From NCBI GenBank assembly GCA_963664115.2, contig CAXWPJ010000012.1:32001-96000 (forward strand): 64,000 bases of DNA, in the 5' to 3' direction. Shown here one piece after another: positions 20,460 through 24,335 of the stretch. The notes beneath the pieces are model-generated. The model worked only from the letters and a program-made list of their open reading frames with translations, had not been told where the DNA came from and searched no databases. Within the stretch, counting starts at the first letter, position 1; each line of letters opens with the position of its first letter. The stretch comes from Terriglobia bacterium (GTDB taxonomy: Bacteria > Acidobacteriota > Terriglobia > 20CM-2-55-15). The position numbers were made by a program, and so were the translations under genes.

Positions 20460-20984
20460 TTAGGGAGCAGGATTTGTTTCGTGGCAAGTCAGACAGGTGA
20501 CGGTCCCCCTCAGCTTGGCGCTCGCTCCATAGTCGTCACTGTTCAGCCGCCCGACCCATTTACGCATCAGGTCGGCCATGAATTCAGGATTGTTTTCAAA
20601 GGTGGCAACCAAGGGGAGACGCTGCTTCGGGATATTCGCGAAGTTGACCTGTCCGGAAACGTGACAATCGGTACACCAAACGCGGCCATCGACAGGATCG
20701 ATCAATGGAGAGCTCCAGTCCGGATTCGGATTCCGATTCGCGGGAACGCTATAGAGAGCTTCGACCCAGGTATGCATGAAAAACGCTTTGACGAAAGGCG
20801 GCGCATCGGCCTCTTCACCATCTTCACCCCCAGTGAAAAACTCGGGCATGGCTAAGGGACTGGCCAGGGGTGCTTCCCGTAGAGGCATATCTTCCAGACG
20901 CGACCCATTACTGATGCGCTCAATGTTCTGGTTGCAGGCCGCGACAAGCAGAACGAAGACAGCAGAAAGAACCCTCAGTTTCAT
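20460..20984 (-). CDS. Diheme c-type cytochrome lipoprotein
   Basis: Lipobox LVAAC; CTDCH and CLTCH heme motifs. Confidence 0.75.
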   Translation of the reverse strand: MKLRVLSAVFVLLVAACNQNIERISNGSRLEDMPLREAPLASPLAMPEFFTGGEDGEEADAPPFVKAFFMHTWVEALYSVPANRNPNPDWSSPLIDPVDGRVWCTDCHVSGQVNFANIPKQRLPLVATFENNPEFMADLMRKWVGRLNSDDYGASAKLRGTVTCLTCHETNPAP

Positions 20985-21910: not shown

Positions 21911-22243
21911 ATGCGTGCGTCAATCCTCAAGAAATACAAGAAGATTCTCGTTGGCAAGAGAGAGGAGATCGCATCCTCGCCAGACCGCTCTACTGTAGCC
22001 GACGAAACCATGCGAACAGGTGACTGGGTCGATCATTCCAGCCAGGAAAACGATCTTCATGTAAATCTGGCACTGAAACAGACCGATACGAAGCTAGTTC
22101 GCGCTATCGAAGACGCGCTCCAGCGGGTGGATCAAGGCACATTCGGCATCTGTATGGATTGTGACGAACCGATTGCTGAAGTCCGCCTGGTCGCCGTCCC
22201 CTGGACCCGGGTGTGCATCGACTGCAAAGAAAAGCAGGACTAG
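21911..22243 (+). CDS. TraR/DksA family C4 zinc-finger regulator
   Basis: GDWVD coiled-coil tip, GTFGICMDC...RL.AVPW...CIDC. Confidence 0.9.
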   Translation: MRASILKKYKKILVGKREEIASSPDRSTVADETMRTGDWVDHSSQENDLHVNLALKQTDTKLVRAIEDALQRVDQGTFGICMDCDEPIAEVRLVAVPWTRVCIDCKEKQD

Positions 22244-22388
22244 ACGCAAGACCTCATCCGACTAGACCTTATCCCACCACAGCGCCGGCGATCCGCTGCC
22301 AGTTTTGAGCCCAGATGGCGAGTAAGGGAAGCGACTCTTACAGAAGTTGATCATCGGAAGCCCACTATCTCTAATTTTTGTACCCTTT

Positions 22389-22408
22389 CCGACGCCGACC
22401 GGCCTCAG
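22389..22408 (-). promoter_or_regulatory. Candidate bacterial SECIS element
   Basis: CUGAGGCC-GGUC-GGCGUCGG starts 11 nt after the UGA; same spacing and GGUC loop as the E. coli fdhF SECIS. Confidence 0.7.
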
Positions 22409-22917
22409 CTTTTGGAGCTTCAGCCTGGCCGTCTGTCCGGCAGATTGTCACCATCAGAAAACACCGATGGAATCGGGCAACCGAGCGAATCCGCCAACTC
22501 CTTCGCGATCGTATTAAGCGCGGGTTTGCTGAAACCGAAATCGGCCATGCGAACCCTCCGCTCGCTATCTATCAAGTAAAGGGTTGGAACATAGTGTACT
22601 TCGTAAGAAGACGACACCCGATAGGGGTGTTCATCGATGACGACCGGGAATTCGAGTTTATATTCGGCGATAAAGCGAAGAGTTTCCGTGAAGTCGTCCT
22701 GGGAAATTCCCCAAATTCGGGGATTTTTATTCACGGTCAAACCGCTGAAAATATTTTGGATGAACGGAAACGTTAACTGAGAGGTGGGGCAGGAACTCTT
22801 ATAGAAGGCCAGCGCTATGGGGCCGGACTGAATCGCTTCCGAGAGTTTCAGCCGCGCGCCATCGGGCGTCTGCAACTGGAATTCGGGTGCAATGATTCCT
22901 TCTTCGAGGTGATCCAT
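22405..22917 (-). CDS. AhpC/TSA-TlpA thioredoxin-fold protein with probable C-terminal selenocysteine (...RPG-U-SSKS)
   Basis: APEF.L, FYKSSCPTS, GISQD, VPTLYLID; TGA at 22420-22422 followed by SECIS-like hairpin; next stop at 22405-22407. Confidence 0.8.
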
Positions 22918-23136
22918 ACTTGTTTTTCTATCCCAAAGCGTTTAAATACTTTGGACTTGTGCCGCAGTCGATATAATAACCCACGCAGATTCGTGGTCTA
23001 AGTCTTGGATCAAAATGTGAACCCGGTGGCCCGCAATTTCACAGCCCGACCTGGAGATTACGTCCGACTGACTCAGCATGTTACCTAGAAGTTTGGCGGC
23101 CTCCGGACGTCGAGCTGGTAAAGGACATAAGGACCC

Positions 23137-24335
23137 ATGGCGAAAATCGATGCTTTCTTTAATTTGATGAACGAAACAGGCGCGTCGGACCTTCATTTAG
23201 TTGCAGGGTCCCAGCCCATTCTCAGAGTCAGTGGAGAGTTAGAGCGTGTCAAGTACGACCCACTGGACGGCGATGAACTGAAGGCGATGCTCTATGAGAT
23301 CGCGCCCGAATTCAAAGTCAAGATCTTTGAGGAGACCGGCGACGTCGACTTCGGATACGAAATCCCGGGAGTCGCCCGCTATAGGGCAAACTTCTTTAAC
23401 CAGGCGCGTCGGACCTTCATTTAGTTGCAGGGTCCCAGCCCAGAACGGTCAAGTACGACCCACTCGCGATGCTGAAGGCGATGCTCTATGAGTCGCGCCC
23501 GAATTCAAAGTCAAGATCTTTTCACGTCGGCAGAGTCGCCCGCTATAGGGCGTCCACGATTTTGTTCAGGCCGTCCTGACCGCAATTGGGGCTCCCGCCT
23601 ATCCTGACGAAGTTCGCCATGCTCCACAAAGGATTGATACTCGTCACCGGCCCTACGGGTAGTGGCAAATCGACCACCCTGGCCGCCATTGTGGACCATG
23701 CGAACAAGAATCGAAAGGATCACATTTTGACCGTTGAGGATCCGATCGAGTTCGTTCACGAGAGCAAGAATTCCATCGTCAATCATCGTGAAGTCGGCCT
23801 GCACACGAAGTCGTTCGCCGCCGCGCTCCGTGGGGCCTTGCGTGAAGACCCCGATATCATTCTCGTCGGCGAGATGCGCGACCTGGAAACAATCTCGTTG
23901 GCAATAGAAGCCGCGGCAACCGGTCACCTCGTGTTTGGAACCCTCCATACGCCAAGCGCCGCCAAAACGGTAGACCGCGTGATCGATGTTTTTCCAGCCG
24001 GCCAGCAGAACCAGATTCGAAACACGCTGTCGGAGGCTCTTAAGGGTGTCGTCGCACAGAACCTGTTCAAGCGCATCGATAAAAAGGGCCGCGTTGCCGC
24101 GCTGGAAATCCTTGTCGTAACCCCTGCGATTTCCAACCTGATCCGTGAGGCAAAGACCTTCCAGATCCCGGGCATGTTGCAGGTGGGTAAGAAATTCGGC
24201 ATGCAGACACTCGACGACGCCATTATGGGCATGTTGAACAAAAAGATCATCAGCCCGGAAGACGCGTACAATAAAGCAAACGATAAGAATAAGTTCCGGC
24301 CGTTACTCAAGAATCCGCCTGAAGAATGGCAGTAG
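23137..24335 (+). pseudogene. pilT: Type IV pilus retraction ATPase PilT, disrupted by a scrambled duplication at 23401-23551
   Basis: GASDLHL, YRANFF; then [33 protein letters not shown]. Confidence 0.85.

Follow-up and report, generated by a model that had tools for sequence, protein, structure and literature searches.

The window, i.e. the whole 64,000-nt stretch of DNA analysed here, carries on its minus strand an ORF (22917-22420) that starts with the ATG at 22917 and codes for 165 residues up to RRPG. Past the first TGA (22420..22422), which is preceded by CCAGGC, the frame continues through the tail codons S-S-K-S (22408..22419), in line with the family pattern x-[SA]-[KR]-[NS], and reaches a second TGA, the true stop (22405..22407). 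The full CDS with read-through and true stop (22405..22917, minus strand) would code for a 170-aa ResA/TlpA-type thioredoxin-fold protein with the C-terminus ...RRPG-U-SSKS, the first TGA likely specifying Sec166, a position at which homologues align Cys. The active-site motif is S-C43-P-T-S46 (CxxS; 22780..22791 for C43-P-T-S46, minus strand), as read from the sequence and an alignment of 136 rows, and Pro111 (22585..22587, minus strand), present in 136 of the 136 rows, occupies the thioredoxin cis-Pro position, with the cis geometry suggested by the fold. The Pfam families AhpC-TSA (PF00578) and Redoxin (PF08534) both score above the cut-off. Since no signal peptide is evident on reading the N-terminal sequence, the protein is likely cytoplasmic. 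A further cysteine, Cys147 (about 22477-22479, minus strand), follows the last helix and is common to all five members of genus g1, four of which are CxxS, but is not conserved in the alignment of the wider family.

The 11-nt SECIS spacer AGCTCCAAAAG (22409-22419, minus strand) overlaps the tail codons and leads to a bacterial SECIS-like hairpin, CTGAGGCC-GGTC-GGCGTCGG (22389..22408, minus strand), which begins 11 nt past the first TGA, has its loop (22400-22397) 19 nt from the UGA and one G.G mismatch (22404/22393), and holds the true stop within its 5' arm. The CPTS motif, the added U-S-S-K-S and a true UGA stop inside the SECIS stem had all been reported in a preliminary description of this DNA and were found again here. 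The folding energy of the hairpin is -9.9 to -11.2 kcal/mol, and taken alone the structure is modest (z -2.2 for a 28-nt folding window, z -0.4 for 63 nt); Rfam contains no match for it. Its GGTC loop at 19 nt agrees with the published bSECIS constraints, which in the available text of PMC13188914 comprise a loop of 3-9 nt, a G among the first two bases, a distance of 16-37 nt after the UGA and an energy of -7.5 kcal/mol or lower. Assembled short-read contigs from three public runs, one of which may represent the source sample, are identical to the window over 22200-22985 or beyond, and the TGA is not a sequencing error because these contigs show zero differences. In the one RNA-labelled run the tail is covered by a variant contig only, which is not evidence of expression.

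As for the surroundings of the gene, in family f1 a pilT-like cluster (pilT by sequence reading) diverges from it on one side and a dksA-like gene converges on it from the other, and in family f9 it is found downstream of a co-directional mutY-like gene and upstream of a co-directional peptidase-like gene (labels by sequence reading). The f9 mutY-like neighbour, a DNA glycosylase, was seen at L045-L048, L050, L051 and L060 and gives a weak hint of an oxidative-stress role. The pilT-like gene of the window (from 23137) is split by a garbled stretch at 23404-23581, in which parts of the gene's beginning recur and the frame is interrupted; the split is an assembly error because the contigs of the three runs have 56 different bases in place of these 178. 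The gene at 20460-20984 (minus strand) probably codes for a lipoprotein; its product contains two CxxCH heme-binding motifs, and no family model scores above the cut-off.

The codon at position 166 and its hairpin across the family

Altogether 97 loci were read, six of which have no recognisable tail and were left out (L034, L078, L086, L090, L110 and L111). The codon is TGA in 70 of the 91 loci with a readable tail and TGC or TGT in the other 21, with no case of TAA or TAG; homologues stopping here at TAA or TAG and having no Cys tail, which the preliminary description had named as evidence against recoding, are thus absent from these 91 loci. The true stop of the 70 TGA forms is TGA in 39, TAG in 24 and TAA in 7, their first four tail codons are stop-free, and the tail is conserved in its amino acids, with third codon positions being the most variable. 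A search with the tail-less protein in 61 genomes returned, among the best 30 loci, 28 of the form PG-TGA-x[SA][KR][NSI]-stop, one PG-C-GSNN and one contig end. With a tail-bearing profile, matches were obtained in 51 of 301 and 63 of 401 sampled genomes of the phylum, the two samples overlapping; the unpublished genome G082 enters only these tallies and that of selA. Of 186 homologues in the protein databases, 149 have this Gly (165) as their last residue and 18 go on with G-C; the NCBI records inspected are shortened and named "TlpA family protein disulfide reductase". Alignment A1 was chosen for rows ending in G or G-C, and the invariance of Gly165 in it is therefore due to selection. The gene thus belongs to a large Acidobacteria family which is shortened in databases, with a likely catalytic residue missing.

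Homologues of the PG-C-GSKN type provide the Cys/TGA pair at the C-terminus that the preliminary description had proposed to look for. Twenty of the 21 Cys forms run on as long frames, and the complete ones are fusions to a domain of about 370 residues, which has no match in the Pfam and NCBIfam libraries searched and was not found in the genome of the window. This partner domain has thousands of relatives, is linked to PF24696 UGSC by one Atlas cluster (41% of members), and may correspond to the protein called "Unknown_1" that partners UGSC proteins in the accessible part of PMC2398784. The fused Cys loci with a Cys-rich partner are L054-L058, L061, L062, L068-L071, L088 and L089. A UGSC selenoprotein gene follows in 7 of the 12 fused loci examined, its motif matching the catalogue representative as given in the available portion of the catalogue. 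The structure matches listed for the fused form are dominated by the redoxin domain. In genomes G238 and G010 the domain occurs in two versions, stand-alone with TGA and as a long Cys form. L028 (G028:C193:941-1447) is a stand-alone Cys form, PG-C-GSNN, which is nested among Sec forms and has no hairpin, in a genome retaining selA, selB and tRNA-Sec; it likely represents a single Sec-to-Cys change.

Loose matches to a UGA followed by a hairpin are frequent by chance in the 64-kb window, amounting to dozens, and the hairpin has its weight from being conserved across homologues. The idea that two UGA-plus-hairpin cases in the window support each other is a weak one, chance matches being common, and the other case was not identifiable in the window. 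When 28 tails were aligned as DNA without guidance, no consensus base pairs emerged because stem length and position vary, and the hairpins were therefore scored singly, with controls. A fixed, ungapped detector, which misses E. coli fdhF itself and 13 of the 70 family members, called a hairpin in 57 of the 70 TGA forms versus 1 of the 21 Cys forms; its control rates were 42 of 1737 for long TGA-terminated ORFs of the same genome and 79 of 2100 for shuffled sequences. The stems comprise 40 distinct arm pairs, with cross-pairing between sequences in just 178 of 1560 combinations, and the true stop lies within or adjoining the 5' arm in 51 of the 57 hairpins. Among the TGA forms the G-led loop is held at 18-25 nt from the UGA.

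The sel genes, which the preliminary description had suggested locating, are present in the genome: selA, selB and selD are all over the cut-offs in a profile search, selD carries an in-frame TGA of its own, and the tRNA-Sec is the sole TCA-anticodon tRNA found, which completes the required set of selA, selB, selC and selD. The relatives are Terriglobia (Acidobacteriota) MAGs. A selA match was obtained in 68 of the 70 TGA-form genomes, the remaining two (G015 and G273) having selB and tRNA-Sec. Because selA is common in the phylum (71 of 80 and 56 of 78 of the genomes searched), its co-occurrence with the gene is informative only in family f9, where it was found in 7 of 7 genomes with the gene versus 1 of 17 without it, these genomes being kin and not independent. 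A genome scan of G000 revealed at least 13 further UGA-plus-hairpin cases with loops at 17-25 nt (C2:141203+, C2:701068+, C9:74840-, C12:242716+, C2:768686+, C5:131175-, C12:268903-, C10:288080-, C12:463339-, C5:202820+, C10:107907+, C2:249668- and C9:453331+), the contexts of which resemble SelW, Prx-like, deiodinase-like, rhodanese, ArsC-like, PS-U-GCC, formate dehydrogenase-like and SelD proteins (labels from motifs). On this motif-based reading the source organism would be a selenoprotein-rich acidobacterium.

Two explanations without Sec have to be weighed against these data. The UGA could be a real stop and the hairpin a transcription terminator, perhaps of the convergent dksA-like gene, as on the plus strand the hairpin is followed by CTTTT, a convergent dksA/traR gene is present in about 21 family-f1 loci, the A-rich K-N codons would give a T run on the opposite strand, and the hairpin by itself is modest. 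This is nevertheless very improbable given that TAA and TAG never occur at the first stop and the next stop varies, that Cys homologues exist and that the tail is conserved as amino acids; moreover, the hairpin is retained in f9 loci with a co-directional downstream gene, a terminator scan calls no site at it and its G-led loop stays at 18-25 nt from the UGA. Reading of the UGA as Trp or Cys through an altered code or leaky read-through would account for the Cys aligned at position 166, but is hardly credible at all, since the only tRNA with a TCA anticodon is tRNA-Sec, the hairpin tracks the TGA forms only, and TGA ends 1737 long ORFs of the genome and serves as the true stop of the gene itself. 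Sec insertion at the UGA at 22422-22420, as claimed from the outset for the annotated stop, is very likely on the strength of the codon counts and the conserved hairpin.

Active site, predicted fold and possible chemistry

Cys43 is found in all of the 136 aligned rows, while position 46 is Cys in 112 and Ser in 24. The 70 TGA forms include 58 CxxC, 11 CxxS and one CxxT. The second cysteine is thus missing from 12 of 70 Sec forms versus 0 of 19 readable Cys loci, although this makes a weak contrast for tying CxxS to Sec, as the Cys forms are nearly all one fusion clade. In a set of 120 proteins, 111 fused Cys forms combine CxxC with a Cys tail and CxxS was seen in none; the remainder were fragments, proteins without the domain and one mis-picked motif. 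In an unrooted tree of 90 rows, with one short row left out and the active-site column retained, which favours fewer changes, CxxS/T corresponds to 7 changes, at least 5 of them forced by strong branches and all among Sec rows, and the U/C label to 2 changes. Sec is independent of CxxS because 58 of the 70 TGA forms retain CxxC. The preliminary description had suggested testing whether CxxS co-occurs with TGA: in these loci CxxS/T occurs only in Sec forms, 12 of the 70 having it. The data fit a Sec tail as the shared state, with the second Cys probably lost repeatedly on the unrooted tree, and the simplest interpretation would make Cys43 and residue 166 the constant pair, with Cys46 optional in the presence of the Sec tail.

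The AlphaFold2 model, folded with Cys in place of Sec from an alignment about 13 of whose 136 rows carried the tail, has a pLDDT of 95.9 overall and 96 over the last ten residues. It shows strand bridges at 109-110, 129-130, 162-163 and 166-167, the backbone of residues 162-163 and 166-167 bridging the Gly128-Phe129 loop and the cis-Pro loop. In thioredoxins the cis-Pro and Gly-Phe loops grip substrates, the position being the one that holds the substrate cysteine. Because the bridged loops are these substrate-gripping loops, the tail seems to occupy the groove and to bring residue 166 next to Cys43. The same bridge pattern is present around Cys159 in the model of a natural fused Cys form. The tail had earlier been described as flexible, which does not agree with its pLDDT and the backbone bridges. 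Cys43 and Sec166 are quite likely a redox pair because the model appears to align through the Cys tail of PDB 2ywi, 2cvb and 3u5r, their contact being read from DSSP bridges and structural-alignment end points. The partnership of the Sec tail with Cys43, as judged from the model and structures, is in line with one part of the initial proposal; its other part, that the Sec replaces a missing resolving Cys, is not supported, as most Sec forms keep CxxC. The product is thus probably, at a slightly lower confidence than the pair itself, a 170-residue thioredoxin-fold selenoprotein with Sec on a five-residue tail which is predicted to dock across the active site and would act with Cys43.

A possible sequence of events may be outlined. 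SelB bound to the GGUC loop would insert Sec at the UGA, and the ribosome would add four residues and terminate at the stop codon within the SECIS stem; where recoding fails, the product would be the 165-aa form, as it stands in databases. The docked tail, according to the model only, would place Sec166 beside Cys43. The selenolate would then take the hit from a small oxidant, e.g. peroxide, which is the least certain step, and Cys43 would resolve the product to form a Se-S bond, which would be reduced via Cys46 where the motif is CxxC and, where it is CxxS as in the protein of the window, by a thiol from outside or by thioredoxin. Cys46 would thereby be dispensable. Reduction of a small oxidant is favoured, as the tail in its modelled position takes up the groove for a protein substrate, and peroxide-type chemistry is proposed tentatively; no substrate is indicated.

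The protein might instead be a ResA/TlpA-type protein-disulfide reductase or isomerase in which Cys43 attacks and the Sec tail swings in as a resolving residue or electron carrier, an arm that would act like the C-terminal arm of large thioredoxin reductases. The closest folds are indeed ResA and DsbE, a peroxiredoxin motif is lacking, and members with CxxS require some other residue for resolution; relay chemistry is suggested by the Cys form being fused to a Cys-rich domain next to UGSC selenoproteins. We consider this a serious but less likely alternative, as the modelled tail, confidently placed and showing no disorder, occupies the protein-substrate groove. It is improbable that the tail is regulatory, with partial recoding giving a long form, its groove closed by Se-S, and a short open form, so that the selenium supply switches the enzyme. 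Recoding in E. coli, at 30-40% efficiency in the available text of PMC4513850, would give both forms, and the short form retains the whole fold, but Cys forms make the tail constitutively and a short CxxS form would have no resolving residue.

Comparison with known systems

On balance we lean towards regarding the gene as a member of a selenoprotein family that is very common in soil bacteria and has not been described, its architecture being new for bacteria: a C-terminal arm of the thioredoxin fold would place the protein's own Sec in the substrate groove, the stop codon would lie inside the SECIS stem and the Sec arm would repeatedly have made the second Cys of CxxC dispensable. Within this reading, Cys/TGA searches missed the family because Sec forms outnumber Cys among stand-alone members. 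If true, it would add a large family to the bacterial selenoproteome and reveal a systematic annotation error, the 149 of 186 homologues being stored without their likely catalytic residue. It would also provide a natural compact SECIS over a stop codon after a four-residue tail, a layout that has to be engineered for recombinant production of C-terminal selenoproteins, and a natural series (CxxC+U, CxxS+U, CxxC+C) in one scaffold, making the advantage of Sec over Cys directly testable.

The family is apparently uncatalogued as far as the accessible parts of the sources go, Sec recoding itself being a known mechanism. No description was found in the literature search, including the available text of PMC1976440, PMC5029168 and PMC13326102. 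None of the thioredoxin-fold entries among the 119 selenoprotein families tabulated in the available text of PMC13188914 shows a tail motif of this kind, and the representatives of that fold in the accessible part of PMC12013277 Table S1 have Sec in the active-site motif. In the available part of the PMC2398784 supplement, GISQD and UGSKN give 0 matches each, and the 5 passages listed for RPGU/KPGU/KAGU belong to other families. No NCBIfam model (June 2026) reaches the cut-off for the protein of the window, the best selenoprotein models scoring 22.7 bits against 250 and 12 against 120, and 34 family members gave just weak E-values to NF041054 and NF053656.

The catalogued thioredoxin-fold selenoproteins (Prx TxxU, Prx-like UxxC/UxxU, Trx, UGC-containing TlpA NF041054, AhpC/TSA UxxS, redoxin UxxC and Prx-SUH) share with the family the thioredoxin fold, a UGA with a downstream SECIS and Cys homologues. 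Their representatives, in the parts of the catalogues available, have Sec in the N-terminal active-site motif, whereas the protein of the window has Cys there and Sec166 on the C-terminal arm. Prx-SUH is compared here by its listed motif, which is CxxU in the accessible text of PMC13188914. The near-terminal Sec proteins KCU-star (NF033934), SaoC (NF040734) and UXX-star resemble the family in that the SECIS must extend beyond the stop; their representatives, as far as the catalogue text available goes, end in CU and are unrelated by name and sequence, and their NCBIfam models do not match here. As to the hairpin, the likeness to the E. coli fdhF SECIS put forward in the preliminary description (an 11-nt spacer and a GGUC loop) was verified on fdhF itself, where the loop lies at 18 nt compared with 19 nt here. 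The fdhF stem has a bulged U, in place of which the window hairpin has the G.G mismatch, and the latter has no lower stem, most of it falling within the 3' UTR and enclosing the stop codon.

The closest fold is that of ResA/TlpA/DsbE (CcmG; NF002854; PDB 1st9, 2f9s, 3gl3 and 4nmu), matching at residues about 4-146 with Z 19.4, rmsd 1.9-2.0 and 136-137 aligned residues. The likeness consists in a thioredoxin fold with an N-terminal insertion, an N-terminal active Cys and the cis-Pro loop and position. The NF002854 score of 49.9 bits is below the family cut-off of 170, and unlike these proteins that of the window has no evident N-terminal membrane anchor, is CxxS (most relatives are CxxC) and possesses an extra C-terminal arm of about 25 residues bearing Sec/Cys. 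The peroxiredoxin motif PxxxT/SxxC (PxxxTxxC) is absent, position 36 being Leu in 102 and position 40 Lys in 124 of the 136 rows.

Among the top 50 structures only PDB 2ywi, 2cvb/2ywo and 3u5r align to model residues 1-170 (Z 16.4-16.9, rmsd 3.0-3.1, 149-154 aligned). We take this group to be CDD PRX_like1. Its members have a single active-site Cys in C-P-x-V (CxxV) and a tail G-C-x-I-K-W, and the Cys of the 2ywi tail is termed "resolving cysteine" in the available text of PMC3091736. A close 2ywi/3u5r homologue (CPFV ... GCNIKW) is encoded as a separate member in the same genome (G000:C12:194068-194679, minus strand). Compared with the protein of the window, which has neither C-N-H-C-P-x-V nor the GCxIKW signature, these redoxins are longer, use Cys and share about 20% identity, the profile comparison covering residues 3-123 only. 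The alignment ranges reach residue 170 and end by numbering at the tail Trp, and with a gap-free alignment of the five terminal residues G-C-x-I-K would match G-U-x-S-K position by position.
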